Part shown: positions 1 through 35,651 of the stretch, in pieces | Layout: each line of letters opens with the position of its first letter | Position numbering within the stretch: the stretch's first letter is position 1 | Assembly (NCBI GenBank): GCA_016926395.1 | Contig: JAFGOT010000027.1 | Span: 1 to 35,651 of the forward strand | Source of the DNA: Candidatus Woesearchaeota archaeon | Lineage (GTDB): Archaea > Nanobdellota > Nanobdellia > Woesearchaeales > SKGA01 | DNA: 35,651 nt | Reading direction: 5' to 3' | Position numbers and translations under genes: made by a program | The notes under the pieces: model-generated | What the model was told of the DNA's origin: nothing | The model's input: the letters and a program-made list of their open reading frames with translations, nothing else | The model's database searches: none

Positions 1-1263
1 ACTATTGCTGATATTACTTATTTTCATTTTGATGATATAATCTCAAACATTCAAACAAAATCAAATTCTAATATTTTAACTAATCGTAAAACAAGAGGAA
101 AATTAAATGCGGCAATTTCTTGTAGTGCAAATTCTTTAAGATCTCTGCTTCAAAATTTTTCATTTGATCATCGTATGATGCCTGGTATTTATGCAGGTCT
201 TCCTTGGTTTTTTCAAATATGGAGTCGTGATGAATTAATTTCTCTTGGTGGCCTGATTTCTTTAGCAAAAGAGCAACATGATCATGAATTATTCTCAAAA
301 ATAAAATCTATTCTTGAGCGTCATATAAAAAGTGTTCTTCCAAATGGTGACTTGGATAATCGTTTTCCACGAAGTGAACTTGGTAGTGTTGATGCTTTGG
401 GTTGGCTTGGGAAAAGGATTCAAGATTTTTTGATTGCGTTAAAAGACGAAAAACTTCTTTATACTTTATTCTCTCCTGTTGAACTTGTTGGTTGGTCGCA
501 GATGCTAAAAGAAGCTCTAGAAAAATCAAAAAAACACAGACTTGTTGATGGTCTTTTCAAAAACGATTTTAATGAAACATGGATGGATACATCATATCAT
601 GATGATGGTAGGGTTGGTTTTAGAATTGAAATTCAAGCTCTTTATTATTCTCTTTATGATTCAATAATTTTTATCGAAAAACTTGTTAAGTCTCCTTACA
701 CAAATGATTTTGTTAATGAGCAAAAACAATTTGTAAAGTTAATAAGAGAAAATTTCATTGATACAAATTTTGGCGGATATTTAATTGATGGGAAAAATTT
801 TCAAGGTCACACTGATAGGTCTTATCGTCCAAATATTTTTTTAGCAGCATACTTGGCGCCAGATATATTGTCAAGAAAAGAATGGTTAACTGTTTTTGAT
901 GCTTATCTAAAAAAATTATATCTGCCATGGGGAGGTCTTAGCACGATAGGTCATGATAGTTCATTATATCAACCAACTTATACCGGTCAAGACAATAAAA
1001 GTTATCATCGAGGTGATTCTTGGTATTTCATAAATAATATTGCTGCAATTGTTCTTGATAAGTTTGGAAGAAAAAATTATGAAACTCAAGTTCGATCAAT
1101 TGAACATGCTAGTGCTAAAGAGTGTGTTGATTTAGGTTTCTTAGGTCATTTTAGTGAAGTTAGTTCTAGTAGTTTTCAAGAAGCACAGGGTAGTTTATCT
1201 CAAGCTTGGAGTGCAAGTACTTTCTTAGAATTAACTCTTTATCGTTACAGTGAAAACGACTAG
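1..1263 (+). CDS. Amylo-alpha-1,6-glucosidase / glycogen debranching enzyme family (GDE_C-like), 5'-truncated by window edge
   Basis: Frame is open from base 1 to TAG at 1261-1263 (ORF track starts at Met 175). Motifs GIYAGLPWFFQIWSRDE, SVDALGW, YRPN, SYHRGDSWYF and QAWSAS are typical of GDE_C (alpha/alpha)6 glucosidases. Confidence 0.85.
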   Translation, partial: TIADITYFHFDDIISNIQTKSNSNILTNRKTRGKLNAAISCSANSLRSLLQNFSFDHRMMPGIYAGLPWFFQIWSRDELISLGGLISLAKEQHDHELFSKIKSILERHIKSVLPNGDLDNRFPRSELGSVDALGWLGKRIQDFLIALKDEKLLYTLFSPVELVGWSQMLKEALEKSKKHRLVDGLFKNDFNETWMDTSYHDDGRVGFRIEIQALYYSLYDSIIFIEKLVKSPYTNDFVNEQKQFVKLIRENFIDTNFGGYLIDGKNFQGHTDRSYRPNIFLAAYLAPDILSRKEWLTVFDAYLKKLYLPWGGLSTIGHDSSLYQPTYTGQDNKSYHRGDSWYFINNIAAIVLDKFGRKNYETQVRSIEHASAKECVDLGFLGHFSEVSSSSFQEAQGSLSQAWSASTFLELTLYRYSEND

Positions 1264-1362
1264 TTTTCACTGTTCAACATGTTAGTGTTGTCACAATGAA
1301 AACGACTAGTTTTCGCTGCTCAAAAATGTTTATTTTTGTTGTGGTGAAAATGATTAGTTTAT
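1251..1362 (+). repeat. Degenerate triple tandem repeat (46-48 bp period) starting with the last codons and stop of the debranching-enzyme gene
   Basis: Units start at 1251 (tgaaaacgactagttttcactgttc), 1297 (tgaaaacgactagttttcgctgctc) and 1345 (tgaaaatgattagtttt). Each of the first two contains the inverted repeat GAAAAC-n5-GTTTTC. Confidence 0.8.
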
Positions 1363-3033: not shown

Positions 3034-3812
3034 AGCCAAGAAATAATTTTTCAAAGAAGCCTCAAAAGTCTTTTCAAAAAGACAAATCTAAATTTGATTC
3101 AAAACCGCAACGTTCTGAAAAGCAAAGTTCTCACGGGATGATGCCTCTTGGAAAATTTCCTAATGTTTTTTCCGAACGAAAGGGTCGTTTCACTAATTAT
3201 TTTACTAAAACTGAAGATGGTAGATCTTTTTTTGATGAAAAAATTGTGAAAATTGATGGTCAAAAGTATAGAAATGTTAATCCTGAACGAAGTAAGTTAT
3301 TTGCAGGTATTGCATCTGGTATTTCTCAGATTGGTTTCAAAGATGATAGTGTTGTTTTATATCTTGGCGCTAGTCATGGTTATACTGTTAGTTTTTTATC
3401 TGATATGATAATTAATGGCCAAATTTATGCAATGGATTTTGCTCCTCGAGTGGTTAGGGATTTAATTTTCTTATGCGAAGCAAAAACTAATATTGCTCCT
3501 TTTATGGCAGATGCTAACCAGACAGCAGCGTATAGTGAATTGCTTCCTGCTTCTGGTGTTGACGTTATTTTTATGGATATTGCTCAGAAAAATCAAGTTG
3601 AGATTTTTACTAAAAATTGTGATGCTTTCTTAAAGTCTGGCGGTTTTGGTCTTTTAGCACTTAAATCTAGAAGTGTTGATGTTACAAAAAAACCAAAAGA
3701 TATTTTCAAAATTGTTAGATCAGAACTTGAAAAAAAGTATGTTGTTGTCGATTATCGAGAACTTGATCCTTTTGAAGAAGATCATGCTTTGTTTGTAATT
3801 AAGAAAAAGTAA
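3030..3812 (+). CDS. flpA: Fibrillarin-like rRNA/tRNA 2'-O-methyltransferase
   Basis: Motifs RSKLFAGI, VLYLGASHGYTVSFLSD, DIAQKNQ and LKSRSVDVT. Coupled to nop5. Confidence 0.96.
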   Translation: MKPRNNFSKKPQKSFQKDKSKFDSKPQRSEKQSSHGMMPLGKFPNVFSERKGRFTNYFTKTEDGRSFFDEKIVKIDGQKYRNVNPERSKLFAGIASGISQIGFKDDSVVLYLGASHGYTVSFLSDMIINGQIYAMDFAPRVVRDLIFLCEAKTNIAPFMADANQTAAYSELLPASGVDVIFMDIAQKNQVEIFTKNCDAFLKSGGFGLLALKSRSVDVTKKPKDIFKIVRSELEKKYVVVDYRELDPFEEDHALFVIKKK

Positions 3813-3910
3813 TTTATTTGGTATTGCGTTAAACGCAATCCCTGGCGCTCGCCTATTGCAAGAATGGCGAAGATGATGATGCTTTGTTTGTAATTAAGAA
3901 GAAATAATTT
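3774..3910 (+). repeat. Direct repeat of fibrillarin 3' end (3774-3812 vs 3869-3907) separated by two hairpins
   Basis: 35/39 nt identical, EEDHALFVIKKK* vs EDDDALFVIKKK*. Hairpins are at 3823-3839 (attgcgt-taa-acgcaat) and 3849-3870. Confidence 0.9.
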
Positions 3911-4029
3911 CTTGTTTTTTTCTTATTATTTGTTTATCCTTTCTTTTTAGAAAGCTTTTTAAATGATTTTCACTGAATTTCTTACTATTAGTGTTATTAC
4001 TATAATAATTATAATTCCCTAAGGTGTGA

Positions 4030-9818: not shown

Positions 9819-12800
9819 TTATTCTTTAAGAGTTCCTAAACCCGTGTGAGTTTCATCTTTAGTTCTAGAAGTCATCGTTTTGTATATTATATTAACATTA
9901 GCAAAATCTCTAATCATATCATTAATTGTTATATCTGATGCTAATGCACCGTTCATGAAACTCTTATAGTTGCTTGTCTCTGACATATTTCCGAATCTAC
10001 CAAGTAGTTCTCTCATTCCAATTGCATAATGAATGTCTGATGCGGGTTGTCCTTGAGGTACACAAGTAAATGTTATGTCTGCTGTCGAATTAAATCCTAA
10101 GTTATTCGAGAATCCTCCACTATGTGAATCTGTAATCCCTGCTTTGTCGGTTACTGACTCTGCATTGATTCCCATTTCATCTCTTACTGACTCCATGTAT
10201 TCAGGATCGTTTAAATCAACTTGTGGTACTCCAATTGAAGCTCGCGGTGTATCAACAACGATTATATTATATGGTAAACCAGTGTGTGTTTGGATAAAGT
10301 TACCTAATTCTACTGGCCAGTCTGGATTATCAGAATTTGGAGTGTTATATACTCGCAGTTCATTCCAGTAAGACCAAGGCGCATTATATGTGCTTCCTTG
10401 TAATGATCTTAAGTCGTCTTTATTTATTGTTAGAACAGAATCATTAACTGGGTATGTCCAGCTTTTTTGAATCATGTTTGGATTATAGATTAAAACAGTG
10501 TCTTTGAAATTAGTTAGTTTGTCTTTAACTGGAACAGTTCCCATTTTTATGTTGTATGTTCCACCTACTGGGATGTTATCATGACTAAAATAATTATCAA
10601 CATTAGCTCCTTGAACTACAAAGTCAATGTCGCCAGTTATTCCAACAGGGAATGGTCCTAATCTGTACTCTCCATTAACTGTTGTTGTAGAGTAAACTGT
10701 TCCATCGGTTTCTGTGAATATAACTTCTAGCTCTCCAGCATCCCCATTGTCGCTTGTTTTTCTTTCTCCTTTCAAAACGAATTCTTGTTCAAGAGATGTT
10801 AAAGTTGGTTCTGTAAATACTGTTTGATTTGCACTTAATGATTTAGTCCATGTAGCAGGATAAATAGGTATGTTACCCTCTATTGTTTTTGGTATTACTT
10901 TTAGAGTGTATGTTGTATTTCCTGTTTCATTTACTAAAACTGTATCTGTAATAATTTGCCCGTCTAAAACATTAAATATTGTATCTGCAACACCAAGAGT
11001 GTTATTCGTAAATATGAAATCTGCTGTTGTTCCACTTTGCATTAATGGATCATTAAATCTAGTTCTTATCACTCCTTTGTATTCAGTTGGAGGAACTTCT
11101 TCTTTTACTAATTCATAAACTAATTCATTTGCCACTCCTTCGTTTATTGATATTGGTATAGAATCGCTTTTTATGTATCCTGCTCTCTCCATTAATAATT
11201 TTAAATCCAGTGTGTGTCCGGGCATTGTTGTTTGTAGGTTTGTGATTGTATCTTGTAGACTGTTCCCACTCATTAACAACTGCCCATTAAGGAATGCTTT
11301 TACATCAACAGAATCAAGTGCAATTCCACTTGCGCTATCTTTTCCTACAACACCTAATTCGTATAAGTATGTTAGAAGTTGGTTTTCTGTTATTCTGTTT
11401 TCTATTGTTTCTGCTGTTAGGTTTGTTTCTAGTCTGTAATCTGAGTGTTCATCTAGGTTTGATTTTAGTATTATGTTTTTATTTGTGTTTACGTCTTGGA
11501 ATGTTAGTGTGTCAAGAGAATTGTTTCCGGTGTTGCCAGATCCTATTAGTGTTGAATCGCTACTTAGTACTAGCCAATTAACGCCTGGTAAATTGTTTCC
11601 TTCTCCATCTTGAGAATTTATTACTAATTCGTATAAGTATGTTAGAAGTTGGTTTTCTGTTATTCTGTTTTCTATTGTTTCTGCTGTTAGGTTTGTTTCT
11701 AGTCTGTAGTCTGAATGTTCGTTTAGATTTGATTTTAGTATTATGTTTTTGTTTGCGTTTAAGTCTTGGAATAATAATGTGTCAAGAGAATTGCTTCCTG
11801 TATTTCCTTGTCCAATTAACACTGAATCGCTACTTAACACTAACCAATTAACGCCTGGTAAATTGTTTCCTTCTCCGTCTTGAGAATTAATAACTAAAGT
11901 ATACTCTTTTGGTTGTGGATTATTTATTTCTGTGATTTGATATGTTTGATTGAAGTTTCCGTTTGTCAAATTTATTGAATCTAATTTATCTTCTAAATCT
12001 ATTCCACTAAATCTTAAAAAATGTTTTAATGTATCTGGTGTTATTTCATTAAATGCATCAATACTTATGTTTTCAAAACTTACTTGTCCTTGTTCATTTG
12101 AAAATAATTTTAGTGTATCTGTACTATTTTCTTTCCACATTTCTGCTAGTACGTTGTTTAGAGGATTTCCTGTTTGTTCGCTTACTATTGTGGCGTAAAG
12201 GTTAGCGAAAAATTCTTGCTGTTTTGGAGTTAGATTGTGATAATTTTTTATGATGTCTCCTTGGCTTACTTTCCAAAGAGTATCTCTTGCCATTTCTAAA
12301 TAATCGTTTGCAGGGATTTCAACTGCGAAATCAACACTATCTGGTATTAATTTATTTCCTTCTATTGGTTTGATTGCAATATCAGTTATTTGAGCATCTC
12401 CGTTATTGTCTGTGGTGATATTAAATGAATATTGTCCGTCTAAAGAATTAACATTCATGTTTGTATTTTTTTGTATGTTGCCATATTTGTCTTCTAGATT
12501 AAAGAACATGTTCGCAAAGAATTCTGGCCATTTTTGCATTTCAAAATCAAAGTAGTTGGTGTTTTCTAAATCTACTGACTTAACAATCTCAAGAGGTTGA
12601 TATTCGTCAACTTCTTCTGCATCATCTAATCTGAATATGAAATTATTATTTTCTGCCATTCGAGCGCTTTTTTGTCCATTGTTGTTTTCTGATGATTTAT
12701 CAAATTCAATTGTTTGCATTCCATAACTTGGAAGCATTCCTGGAATAATTTTTTTTGCTGGATGAACTCCATCACTGAATAGAAGAACTTGCTCTGGAAC

Positions 12801-13291: not shown

Positions 13292-14518
13292 TTATTTGCT
13301 TTCGTATATTTTGTCGAAAATAACGTTTGATAAGCTGTCTAGAATGATTGGTGTTAGATATTTTTCAGTTAATTGTTTGGTTTGGTTTTTATTTTCTACT
13401 GTTGTGTATATTACTCTTCCTTGAGCCATTGCATTGTTATTCTCATCAAATTTTTTAGTGTATTTGTAATCAATAAAATTATTTTCTTGTTTGTATGGAA
13501 TAACATCTCCACCTTTTATTTTTAAATCTTGATTTCTTTTAATTTTATTTGCCTTTAACATCATCAAATATATTGCTTTGTCTGATTCATGAATTAATGT
13601 TCCTTTGTTTACTCTTATATCGTAACTTTTCAATGCAAAGTCTATGATGACGACTATTTTGTTTTCATACGTATAAATTCCTGGATTGTTTAAATCTTCT
13701 AGTGTGATAATTTCTAAGTTTGTTTTATTATTTCTTTTTTCTTTTTCTTCTTTTTTGATGTTATATGCTTCTAACCGTTTTTTTGTTAATTCAAAGTATC
13801 CCTCTTGTATTGGGCTTTCTGTTAATTTTGCATATTCTTGGGATTGATTTACAAATTCGAAAATTTCTTCAAAATCTTTGTTGTCTTTTTCTATCATTTC
13901 CTCAAGTCTTTCTTCAAATTTATCTTGGCCTTTCCCAACTGTTTTTTTAAGATCTTCTTCACATTCTTTATCGATAATTAATGCTTTTGTTTTATTTTTA
14001 TAACTTAGAACTAATTTTTCTTTACTCTGTTCTTTGCTTTGTGCGTATTTTAAAGCAGAATAAAGAAACAAATCTATTTGCTTTAGATTTTCTTCATCTA
14101 AATCTCTAATTTGTTTATTATATTCTTTTTTGAATGTTTTTTCTGATTTTAAAATTTCTGAGAAAACATCGTTTCTCTTTGTTTCTAATTTGTTTATCTC
14201 TTCTAGTTTTTTGTTAAAGAAAATCTTTCCATTATCCGACCATTCTTCATCTCGATCTTTTCTTACTAATTCTTTTGCTTTTTCAAAGTCTTGCATATCG
14301 ATATATTTTTGATATTTTAAAGATGCTTCTGTCTCCAAAATTTTCCTATCGAGTCTAATTCTCTCAATTGACAAGTTCATTGTTTTAGCTTTTGCTTTTA
14401 GTTCATTAACTTGTTCTTGGCTAACTCTGTTTTCAGGAATTATTGGTTGAAATGCTTGTTTTGTAGTGCTACAGCTAACTGTTGCGGCTATTATTGCTGC
14501 TAAAGCTAACTTTTTCAT
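13292..14518 (-). CDS. Putative lipoprotein, Lys/Glu-rich coiled-coil, function unknown
   Basis: MKKLALAAIIAATVSC is a short signal with lipobox Cys, followed by a long charged helical region. Confidence 0.75.
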   Translation of the reverse strand: MKKLALAAIIAATVSCSTTKQAFQPIIPENRVSQEQVNELKAKAKTMNLSIERIRLDRKILETEASLKYQKYIDMQDFEKAKELVRKDRDEEWSDNGKIFFNKKLEEINKLETKRNDVFSEILKSEKTFKKEYNKQIRDLDEENLKQIDLFLYSALKYAQSKEQSKEKLVLSYKNKTKALIIDKECEEDLKKTVGKGQDKFEERLEEMIEKDNKDFEEIFEFVNQSQEYAKLTESPIQEGYFELTKKRLEAYNIKKEEKEKRNNKTNLEIITLEDLNNPGIYTYENKIVVIIDFALKSYDIRVNKGTLIHESDKAIYLMMLKANKIKRNQDLKIKGGDVIPYKQENNFIDYKYTKKFDENNNAMAQGRVIYTTVENKNQTKQLTEKYLTPIILDSLSNVIFDKIYESK

Positions 14519-14550
14519 AAAAAAGAGAAATGAAGATTATCTTAATAATC

Positions 14551-14610
14551 TTACGGCTTATACAAAAACTCATCAATCAAATCTTTTGCTTTCTCACGTC
14601 TTGCTTGGTG
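14551..14610 (-). pseudogene. Isolated diverged copy of the trpS 3' end (19 codons plus stop)
   Basis: Translates HQARREKAKDLIDEFLYKP*, versus the TrpRS tail HQKRRKEAENQIEDFLYKPE*. The ungapped match is 11/19 identical. Confidence 0.85.
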
Positions 14611-14641
14611 TCTTCCGTTTAGGAAGGCTCAAAAAATAAGT

Positions 14642-15763
14642 TTATTCTGGTTTATACAGAAAATCTTCTATTTGATTTTCTGCTTCTTTCCTTCTTTTTT
14701 GATGTTCAGCTAAGAACTCATTAATTTTGTCAATTAACATTGCTTTTACTTCGCCAGATAAGAGTTCGCCTTTTCGATATTTATCATACATCTCTTGTAG
14801 TTTTTCATCGTCATCTTCAAAGTATTGCATCCATTGACAAGCAACATCGATATCTGGATTTCCGCCTAGTTTTCTATGTTCTTCGACTGTATCTTGTCCG
14901 CCACTAAATGCATATTTGTTAATTTTTTTCTTAACTGTTTTTGGATCATCTGTTAGAAGAATATCTTTTCCTTCTCCACCTTTATCTGTCGATTGTTTTC
15001 CTTCTCCGCCTGTCATTGGCGTCATAAATTTAGCATGTAGTATTGCTGGTTTTTTATGTCCTAATTTTTCTATAACATCTCGACTAATTCTAAAGTGGGG
15101 ATCTTGATCAACACCAAGTGGAATGAGACACGGTCTGTTTTCATTTCTTAGTACGTTTGGTAAGAATGCTGGAACTGTTTGCATTGCAGTATAGAAGATG
15201 CTTCCTATATTGTTGGAATCCGTGAATCCAAATGCGCCTTTAACTTGTGATGTTGTTATTTTTTTTGCTACTTTGATTGCTTCTGGATACATAATTCCTG
15301 CATGTTTTGTATCAATCAAAAAATGTGTTTTTTTTGGGTCAAAACCAAGTGCAATCACATCTAACATGTTCTCGTATGTCCAGTCTTGAATTTCTTCATA
15401 ACTTTTATCTTGTTTGAATAAGAATTTTTCATCATCTGTGAACTGAAACCATAGGTCCACATCAAAAACATCTTGTAACCATTTGACAAATCTCCAAGTT
15501 CCAACATGACCTAAATGTATTGGTCCTGATGGTCCTCGACCTGTATATAAAAAGAATTTATTTCCTTTCTTGTATTCGTCAAGGCACCATTTCAGGTCTC
15601 TGTGTGCAAAGAATATTCCCCTACGTAATTGAGGGTGTAGTTCTCCTGCAAGTTCTTTGATTTGTTTAAGATCCTCTTCTGTGAGTTTCTTTATACCAAA
15701 TTCTAAAACTAGTCTTTCATAATCGACTGCTCCTTCGACCTCGTATGGATTTACTGTACTCAT
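14642..15763 (-). CDS. trpS: Tryptophan--tRNA ligase (archaeal/eukaryote type)
   Basis: Motifs YTGRGPSGPIHLGH (HIGH-type), GVDQDPHFR and KINKYAFSGGQ. The KMSKS position reads KQSTD. Confidence 0.96.
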   Translation of the reverse strand: MSTVNPYEVEGAVDYERLVLEFGIKKLTEEDLKQIKELAGELHPQLRRGIFFAHRDLKWCLDEYKKGNKFFLYTGRGPSGPIHLGHVGTWRFVKWLQDVFDVDLWFQFTDDEKFLFKQDKSYEEIQDWTYENMLDVIALGFDPKKTHFLIDTKHAGIMYPEAIKVAKKITTSQVKGAFGFTDSNNIGSIFYTAMQTVPAFLPNVLRNENRPCLIPLGVDQDPHFRISRDVIEKLGHKKPAILHAKFMTPMTGGEGKQSTDKGGEGKDILLTDDPKTVKKKINKYAFSGGQDTVEEHRKLGGNPDIDVACQWMQYFEDDDEKLQEMYDKYRKGELLSGEVKAMLIDKINEFLAEHQKRRKEAENQIEDFLYKPE

Positions 15764-35070: not shown

Positions 35071-35651
35071 TTATTCCTCACTGTTGTTGTTTTCTTCGTC
35101 TGCGTTTTGTTCATTGTTGAACTCTTCATTTGCAGGTTCGTTTTCTTCATTTCCTCTAACTGATAGTTCTTTTCCAGTTTTTTCTTCTAGAAATACTTTT
35201 ATTCGATCAGTTAATCCAGAAATATGAGATTCTTCTTCGATTTTTTCAATAGTTTCAACTGCTAAATTTTCCATTGCAGGTTCGCCATTAATCCAAACAA
35301 GTCCATTTTGTCCAACTGTAATTTTACAATCGGTTGCTTGTTTGATCATTGAAACCATACTTCCTTTTTTACCAATTATTCGAGGTACTTTGTTTGTGTT
35401 AACTTTTATTATTCTTCCCCCTCGAAGTTTGTAAAGACCTTGTCCTTTAACACTAACATCAACTAAGTTCTGGCTTGTTACATTTGTTATTTTACCAACA
35501 AAGTAATCGCCGATATTATAGTATCGTGTTAAGTCTGCTCCTTTTGGTACGAAGTCAAATGTTCCGTCTTTAATTGGAATTAAACCAGTGTATGGGCAGT
35601 TAAATTCTACTCTCCATCCCATGCTGATTACATCAATTACTTTTCCAATAA
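35071..35651 (-). CDS. rrp4: Exosome RNA-binding subunit Rrp4, 5'-truncated by window edge
   Basis: S1 and KH motifs (KVPRIIGKKGSM, GQNGLVW), acidic tail. The frame stays open beyond 35622 (IGKVIDVIS). Confidence 0.93.
   Translation of the reverse strand, partial: IGKVIDVISMGWRVEFNCPYTGLIPIKDGTFDFVPKGADLTRYYNIGDYFVGKITNVTSQNLVDVSVKGQGLYKLRGGRIIKVNTNKVPRIIGKKGSMVSMIKQATDCKITVGQNGLVWINGEPAMENLAVETIEKIEEESHISGLTDRIKVFLEEKTGKELSVRGNEENEPANEEFNNEQNADEENNNSEE

Follow-up and report, generated by a model that had tools for sequence, protein, structure and literature searches.

The window analysed here is a stretch of 35,651 nucleotides (nt), positions 1 to 35,651 of contig JAFGOT010000027.1 in assembly GCA_016926395.1, from the metagenome-assembled genome of a Candidatus Woesearchaeota archaeon of the DPANN group. 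This genome (G000; its other contigs are given C-numbers) is about 1.0 Mb long, with 32% G+C and an estimated completeness of 82.5%. Loci in relatives and other lineages carry L-numbers, and homologs of tryptophanyl-tRNA synthetase (TrpRS) carry P-numbers. On its minus strand, the window encodes an archaeal-type TrpRS of 373 amino acids (trpS, 14642..15763), assigned from the open reading frame (ORF), a PF00579 match and the names of its homologs. Between trpS and the gene for a predicted lipoprotein lies a second, diverged copy of the last codons of trpS, called the trpS echo below.

All parts of this arrangement are on the minus strand. TrpRS ends in EFLAEHQKRRKEAENQIEDFLYKPE, and the resident tail that concerns us, HQKRRKEAENQIEDFLYKPE, is encoded at 14642-14704, with the stop codon at 14642-14644. 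A 31-nt spacer (14611..14641) follows, defined by sequence and folding: a T-run, ACTTATTTTTTGAG, and then the hairpin CTTCC-TAAAC-GGAAG (14612-14626; cttcc-gttta-ggaag on the plus strand), which ends 1 nt short of the echo. The hairpin has a minimum free energy of -6.9 kcal/mol (z = -3.4), equaled in none of 200 shuffles. The echo itself (14551..14610), in our reading the end of a second trpS allele, has 19 codons (14554-14610) that spell HQARREKAKDLIDEFLYKP, starting CAC CAA GCA and ending CCG, and a TAA stop (14551-14553); it lies in frame +1 relative to trpS. The resemblance may extend a little further upstream, to AFLNGR (14611-14628), making 26 codons, given that the nearest relatives have FLKG there. 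Upstream of the echo there is an in-frame TGA seven codons away (14629-14631) and no usable start codon, so that it is not translated as it stands. A gap of 32 nt (14519..14550) separates its stop from the start of the lipoprotein gene (13292..14518), an ORF compared with loci L039 and L056 below; the protein has 408 amino acids, a TVSC lipobox and no Pfam family. The TATA-like TTATTAAG, about 25-30 nt 5′ of the lipoprotein ATG, is a putative promoter element, judging from archaeal promoter geometry. The bacterial-style lipobox is consistent with a gene for prolipoprotein diacylglyceryl transferase (Lgt; PF01790, E = 9e-63), here in an archaeon, at C17 38335-39138.

The trpS echo is real. The original prediction had placed the echo and its hairpin correctly, and its gapless alignment, with 11 of 19 amino acids identical (38 of 57 nt), was reproduced, as were all six of the synonymous codon pairs that it named among the identical residues. 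With BLOSUM62, the ungapped score of the trpS tail against its downstream copy is 65, while the best score in the trpS loci of 29 relatives is at most 24. A tblastn search of the entire 1 Mb genome found two copies only, the resident tail and the echo (E = 4e-4), which rules out an island with a third copy at its other end. We also scanned the genome by comparing the last 15 residues of all 1077 ORFs with up to 400 nt downstream on the same strand; by this measure the trpS echo scores 39, and the maximum of the opposite-strand null, used as the threshold, is 29. That the peptide is a genuine TrpRS tail follows from searches with back-translated HQARREKAKD, in which 14 of 15 matches in public contigs were TrpRS C-termini. 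The GC-rich TrpRS genes of Thermoplasmata and Bathyarchaeia recovered with this pattern were set aside as donors; they show that the motif is a TrpRS tail.

A metagenome assembly can string together two strain variants of one gene end, and this region borders a strain-variable block; the contigs of relatives often break just after flpA, the fibrillarin gene at the other side of that block. For the trpS echo, such an artefact is hardly credible. An independent Logan contig (L057, 4190 nt, from run SRR13394436) is 100% identical over trpS, the echo and the lipoprotein gene, and a second sequencing run gives the same gene spacing there. The collapse of an assembly bubble cannot make a unique 31-nt spacer, and a similar structure stands behind the ExoIII gene of L108, which comes from another sample. 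The join of trpS to the echo is thus not chimeric.

The way in which the two ends differ says something about their past. It had been proposed that selection on the protein shaped these differences, and both simulation and the split of differences over codon positions 1, 2 and 3 (8:2:9) bear this out. When 19 substitutions were placed at random, the probability of retaining at least 11 of 19 identical amino acids was 0.003-0.007, and that of a score of 65 or more was 2e-5. By this last figure, the two copies diverged as working gene ends, and for most of the time since they split the echo was how a working trpS allele ended. A copy decaying neutrally beside its source is excluded by the same simulation, in agreement with the original prediction. 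A simple tandem duplication of the end of trpS, with the downstream copy decaying neutrally, has some points in its favor: the copies are 94 nt apart on the same strand, near-identical pairs exist elsewhere in the genome (86 nt at 98.8%, 67 nt at 98.5% and 32 nt at 100%), and the paired ends of ExoIII genes, discussed below, show origin from, or homogenization with, local sequence. We nevertheless regard it as very improbable for trpS. In addition to the simulated probabilities and the mere 2 of 19 changes at second positions, the spacer is unique sequence and no part of a repeated unit, and the echo is 92% identical to its counterpart in another lineage (L039), compared to some 65-71% at the third codon positions of core genes, if these are from the same organism.

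The trpS echo has company. Besides trpS, at least 11 further protein genes have a downstream copy of their own end that scores above the null maximum. Three hits of the scan were dropped: a case of P0/P1 stalk paralogy (C22), a spurious ORF inside the gene for a 1134-amino-acid surface protein, and a reverse-strand view of the ExoIII site. Together with 4 to 8 of the 23 tRNA genes, about 12 protein genes give a total of about 20 gene-end copies in G000. The copies comprise the last 25-86 nt of the gene and lie 5-120 nt downstream, behind spacers of 5-96 nt that hold no gene and, in most of those examined, hold a hairpin; the placement of the trpS spacer is the same. A blastn comparison of the genome with itself gave 26 local direct repeats. 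Eleven are internal protein repeats inside ORFs. The remaining 15 include 10 over the stop of a gene and 2 at the 3′ end of a tRNA gene. The other 3 are not counted as echoes: two tRNA-Thr genes that are paralogs, a hairpin of 37 nt that occurs twice right behind a stop on C31, and, on C10, a pair 561 nt apart. None of the 15 is at a 5′ end.

A sister case is in the window itself, behind flpA, on the plus strand (3774..3913), where the tail (3774-3818) and its copy (3869-3913) are 89% identical in nt. The tail reads EEDHALFVIKKK, and the repeat, 95 nt downstream, reads EDDDALFVIKKK, each with its stop; about 50 nt with a double hairpin lie between. This copy and the trpS echo stand at opposite borders of a 10.7-kb surface-protein block. 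Within that block, the gene for the 1134-amino-acid surface protein has an internal tandem repeat of 270 nt at 89% identity (window 11354-11897). No fibrillarin echo was found in the loci of 17 relatives. In several genomes of the same genus (G004 C59, G006 C68 and G007 C22) the contig ends 150-230 nt past fibrillarin, a hint that other species, too, have a strain-variable region at this place; behind flpA, G006 has a GCGTTAAACGC hairpin like the one in G000.

The other protein genes affected are core genes, those for Lgt with a 100-amino-acid ORF (C17 39127-39324), XPD helicase (C19 24218-24401), a 212-amino-acid protein (C24 25865-25969), a 148-amino-acid protein (C29 1853-1976), OapC (C29 9503-9682), methionine aminopeptidase (MetAP; C38 2965-3190), PAC2 (C38 7509-7641), ExoIII (C40 11218-11337), a tRNA methyltransferase (C2 36438-36580), RsmB/F (C10 11762-11877) and DUF7121 (C22 15057-15177), the last with its end, FQKSLGK and stop, almost fully recoded by synonymous changes. 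The ExoIII site gives a glimpse of how such pairs behave over time. Its two copies are identical within a lineage and different between lineages, with TAT CTA in G000 (C40 11241-11342) and TAC ATA in L108 (3259-3381), a pattern that would fit either gene conversion or recurrent insertion at one site. The PAC2 and OapC sites are empty in relatives, and no echo was found at the DNA level in the 400 kb searched from two relatives, a congener (140 kb) and a member of the same order with a complete genome (260 kb of it), where about 4.8 would be expected at the density seen in G000. Thus far, the gene-end copies are strictly at 3′ ends and, apparently, only in this lineage.

Among the 23 tRNA genes, four (Asn, Gly-GCC, Val and Ser-CGA) have a clear copy of their last 17-29 nt, 39-91 nt downstream; these sites are at C25 9824-9949 and C16 900-1036, at tRNA-Gly(GCC) on C22 and at tRNA-Ser(CGA) on C37. 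Four more tRNA genes are borderline, with 15-16 matches in 20; the maximum of an upstream control was 13 in 20 once the tRNA-Thr pair (17 in 20) had been set aside. That pair, and a tRNA-Ala pair in the relative G003, are paralogs and were excluded.

Hairpin modules recur among the spacers. One of them is GTGCTACCAACGGTGCAC, with the stem kept through compensatory changes, and a second is GATTTTGGTGCAGCTTTTGTGTGAAAAGGTGC. A third, GGTATTG-hairpin-CAATCCCT..CGCTCGCCTAT(T)GCAAGAATGGC, is in the fibrillarin spacer and behind PAC2; its 3′ part, CGCTCGCCTAT(T)GCAAGAATGGC, abuts the echo both behind PAC2 (C38 7540-7641) and behind ExoIII in L108. Each module has 2-5 copies in the genome, and all copies except one are at sites with gene-end copies. 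The exceptional GATTTTGGTGCAGC... copy, at C19 47057-47087, has no echo and is directly 5′ of a TTTATAAATA box and a gene start; by its position, it may be a promoter-linked source copy. One spacer module was looked for in 17 relatives of the family and not found. Rfam recognized only the tRNAs, and no spacer family, in 13 echo loci and the flpA region, in a scan that did not take the trpS spacer by itself, and scans of IMG/VR for the spacer modules returned nothing or coding coincidences (LAYGKND in GC-rich contigs). A doubled terminator-like hairpin is found elsewhere in the window (1247-1323), where ORF 175-1263 has a 31-nt palindromic hairpin overlapping its stop, with a second copy, 90% identical, 46 nt further downstream. 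Window positions 1-47 have an identical match in the end of C37 (46940-46986), and positions 35624-35651 in the start of C29 (1-28); the window therefore probably joins these two contigs.

Where did the second trpS end come from? The original prediction spoke of a fairly distant ortholog, and this is the part of it that fails. The homologs P0001, P0126 and P0002 are 89% identical overall, 91.7% identical over the body and 83% identical overall, respectively, to the G000 TrpRS, with the tails FLKGHQERRAEAHKLIDEFIYKH, FLAEHQKRREKAADLVDSFLYKQ and FLKGHQERRKKAHKLIDEFIYKP. Compared to P0001 and P0002, the echo is 62-71% identical in the tail and the resident tail 48-52%; compared to P0126, the counts are 14 and 10 of 19. 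The echo also stops after YKP, as do the tails of the nearest TrpRS relatives. It is therefore as near to the closest Woesearchaeal tails as the resident tail is, or nearer, and the echo allele, as judged by these alignments, is from a closely related Woesearchaeal lineage, within the tail variation of the closest TrpRS proteins. No TrpRS with the echo as its real tail was found among 120 close homologs or in a search focused on the tail. The trpS gene is itself a mosaic of P0001-like and P0126-like stretches, and its genomic context has at least three versions within the genus (loci L002-L015 of relatives). In G000, the usual site, A-trpS-B (C15 21122-23550), holds a flavodoxin-like gene, and trpS sits behind a copper ATPase gene. 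We considered this synteny as evidence on the echo and set it aside, since it informs on the mobility of the trpS locus and not on the echo.

Two loci from other lineages bracket the arrangement in G000. L056, which carries P0126, has the order copper ATPase, trpS, 161 nt, 1134-amino-acid surface protein, with neither lipoprotein gene nor echo. The 3′ end of its ATPase gene encodes a sequence 98% identical in amino acids to that of G000, the N-terminus of the surface protein matches in 53 of 56 residues, and roughly the first 94 nt between its trpS and surface-protein genes have no match to the G000 spacer, echo or lipoprotein stretch. L056 is, on this comparison, the closest relative of the backbone, and the echo belongs to a segment present in G000 and absent from L056. 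L039, a Logan contig of 1629 nt from another metagenome sample, begins 1 base before a copy of the echo, HQARREKAKDMVDEFLYKP and stop, that matches the G000 echo at 55 of 60 nt, with three silent and two conservative changes. After it come a gap of 32-33 nt (the G000 gap except for one inserted base), the lipoprotein gene (57% amino acid identity), and the promoter and start of a gene of the 1134-amino-acid type. Identity between G000 and L039 is 91% in the echo and 98% in the gap and signal peptide, and falls to about 70% in the remainder of the lipoprotein gene. In the sample of L039, two core genes, assumed to be from the same organism, match those of G000 at about 90% of amino acids and at only 65-71% of third codon positions. 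The stretch that runs from the echo through the signal peptide thus reflects either recent exchange between lineages or constraint.

The echo might be kept because it does something: as an element upstream of the lipoprotein promoter, as a homology anchor for swaps of surface cassettes, or as an alternative TrpRS C-terminus reached by RNA processing or by ribosome bypass of the 94-nt tail-plus-hairpin. Consistent with a function, this segment (91-98% identical) stands out from the ~70% of the remaining gene, the reading frame and stop position of the echo are intact in both G000 and L039, echoes flank the surface-protein block on both sides, and the FQKSLGK copy on C22 is recoded almost completely by synonymous changes. 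But the resident tail has its own stop and T-run, so that a complete TrpRS needs no processing; the five differences between the two echo copies are too few to show selection; no echo was found in 29 relatives; and other echoes have lost conserved residues, as expected of unused copies, with the SDHCP motif gone from that of ExoIII and a His conserved in nine relatives of the same genus gone from that of fibrillarin (DH to DD). A functional echo seems to us quite unlikely. The echo itself is probably without function, save for its last bases, where the upstream part of the lipoprotein promoter is expected.

Taken together, these findings lead us to read the trpS echo as the scar of a recombination or insertion event by which two trpS alleles were joined. 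The explanation that we find somewhat more probable than its alternatives combined is that the echo is a noncoding relic of the end of a second trpS allele and one of a genome-wide class that arises by insertion or exchange at gene ends. We envision an insertion of DNA, or an exchange, at the end of a gene, through recombination that is either site-specific or based on one-sided homology; the gene would keep one complete end, and the second end would be stranded downstream. In the case of trpS, the two ends would be those of two alleles, side by side since recombination between lineages replaced the DNA on one side of the hairpin. The version that we favor has the pair joining an L039-type end, together with the 5′ region of the lipoprotein gene, to an L056-type gene and backbone. 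There is roughly an even chance that an L039-like lineage supplied the echo, along with the segment of the lipoprotein gene, to a backbone of the L056 kind; a more doubtful alternative is that it is the older resident end, displaced when the 3′ part of trpS was replaced. Horizontal replacement of trpS or of the downstream block had been part of the original prediction, along with the idea of a once-functional end. Both ideas hold: the simulation bears out the once-working end, and the mosaic trpS and the 91-98% identity of the L039 segment support exchange. A one-off replacement is not the whole explanation, given the genome-wide class of gene-end copies, which that account did not include.

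Several observations weigh against this explanation or parts of it. Tests of polarity conflict. Comparison with P0001 first made the resident tail look like a foreign outlier, a suggestion that was then weakened: the tails of P0001 and P0126 share only 48% at 87% identity of the body, and the synonymous difference rate between the resident tail and P0126 (3/12) equals that of the gene body (0.29). The trpS tail is, by these numbers, fast evolving, so that its similarity to other tails is by itself no guide to which end is native. The arrangement of the donor type is cut in L039 exactly at the echo, and the copy there could be a working gene end or another echo; the lipoprotein body is only 57% identical in amino acids, so that L039 itself is not the donor; and the 92% conservation of the echo between lineages could mean selection on it. 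The trpS spacer shares only a TAAAC-type loop and a T-run with the other spacers, and no clear module. Finally, no enzyme or complete mobile element is tied to the gene-end-copy sites, the spacers of which are without genes.

As to candidate enzymes, G000 has four to five tyrosine recombinase genes (C30 543-6226, with three within 6 kb; C18 1491-1943; C6 20135-20713). No reverse transcriptase (RVT_1), Y1 transposase or Cas1 was found in the genome as it stands, at 82.5% completeness. With about 20 spare gene ends stranded behind short hairpin inserts, gene ends in G000 would be hot spots of a recombination process, and a class to which some 12 protein genes and around one in three tRNA genes belong, always at 3′ ends, points to an active process specific for gene ends. 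Going further, and tentatively, this DPANN lineage may have a process directed at gene ends that puts gene-less hairpin modules and a spare end behind stops and tRNA 3′ ends. Its agent might be template switching at terminators, or the tyrosine recombinases of the genome if they work in trans, and the stranded ends might then become borders or anchors for the exchange of alleles and surface cassettes; in that view, one such exchange would have left the trpS echo as its fossil. At trpS, a recombination border runs past the gene for an essential aminoacyl-tRNA synthetase in a DPANN archaeon; alleles of sister lineages would have been spliced there, and a short fossil of the other allele kept. 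If real, the process would add a new way in which the genomes of ultra-small archaea change, and would offer a means of studying the exchange of their variable surface-protein islands. A limited literature search found no published description of such a gene-end process.

How does this compare to systems that are known to duplicate or displace gene ends? Some can be set aside by their hallmarks. For a transposon or miniature inverted-repeat transposable element, the duplicated lengths (25-86 nt) vary too much, the trpS spacer has no terminal inverted repeats, and the copies are 33% diverged in a coding pattern. For a diversity-generating retroelement, the echo has A at only 2 of 19 mismatches and there is no RVT_1 match. 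For ectopic spacer integration of the type known from clustered regularly interspaced short palindromic repeats, the lengths of repeat and spacer vary widely and no Cas1 was found.

The pair of trpS ends could instead be the attachment sites of a classical integrated element (a virus, plasmid or island) that brought a replacement trpS end and was then lost except for 31 nt. Phage 21 at icd, and integrative and conjugative elements at gene 3′ ends, are elements that supply replacement ends. Archaeal elements with tyrosine integrases, of the SSV and pTN3 types, leave duplications of tRNA 3′ ends. The signature of attL and attR is partly present in G000, with same-strand direct repeats of 3′ ends, of which the upstream copy completes the gene, at trpS, at other genes and at tRNAs, and the genome has its tyrosine recombinases; there is, however, no element body. 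At all of the ~20 sites the insert is only 5-96 nt and gene-less, one family of hairpin modules is found at different target genes, which is unlike an integrase with its own attachment site, and copy lengths vary. The left boundaries of the trpS repeats, GAGTTCTTA and GAGCCTTCCTA, are only loosely similar and may or may not reflect a common crossover core. Searches of G000 for distant pairs of gene-end repeats, as expected at the two ends of an intact element, gave no convincing result. A classical element is thus unlikely as the source of the trpS pair, if less so than a functional echo. The incomplete tRNA 3′ ends that follow intact tRNA genes resemble those left by SSV- and pTN3-type elements, but they are 36-121 nt from the gene, with a short spacer only, and neither split integrases nor element bodies were seen.

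Repetitive extragenic palindromic (REP) sequences and bacterial interspersed mosaic elements (BIME) offer a likeness of another kind: as in G000, short hairpin modules stand in varied combinations just past stops, with stems kept by compensatory changes. Unlike them, each module in G000 has only 2-5 copies, and no Y1/RAYT transposase was found. To our knowledge, REP elements do not come with a copy of the gene end.

Homology-facilitated illegitimate recombination (HFIR) needs homology on one side only and shifts the old 3′ end downstream as an orphan, as in the effector-immunity arrays of the Vibrio cholerae type VI secretion system and the orphan 3′ regions of Rhs genes (PMC5361080). The mosaic trpS, and a block of variable surface proteins adjoining a conserved gene, recall these cases. 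Those displace whole variable modules and not 60 nt, however, and HFIR is rare and not specific for 3′ ends; it accounts for neither the shared hairpin modules nor the tRNA cases of G000. Among the nearest likenesses is the e14 prophage, which supplies the terminal codons of E. coli icd and leaves a 163-bp pseudo-icd copy (PMC6379469). Unlike icd, the copies at trpS are only 31 nt apart, with no integrase or other gene between them, and a single genome of 1 Mb has about 20 such genes, some of which have hairpin modules in common. As at icd, the gene keeps a complete end, and the second end is stranded downstream on the same strand; each having evolved as a working end, the two differ mostly by silent or conservative changes.

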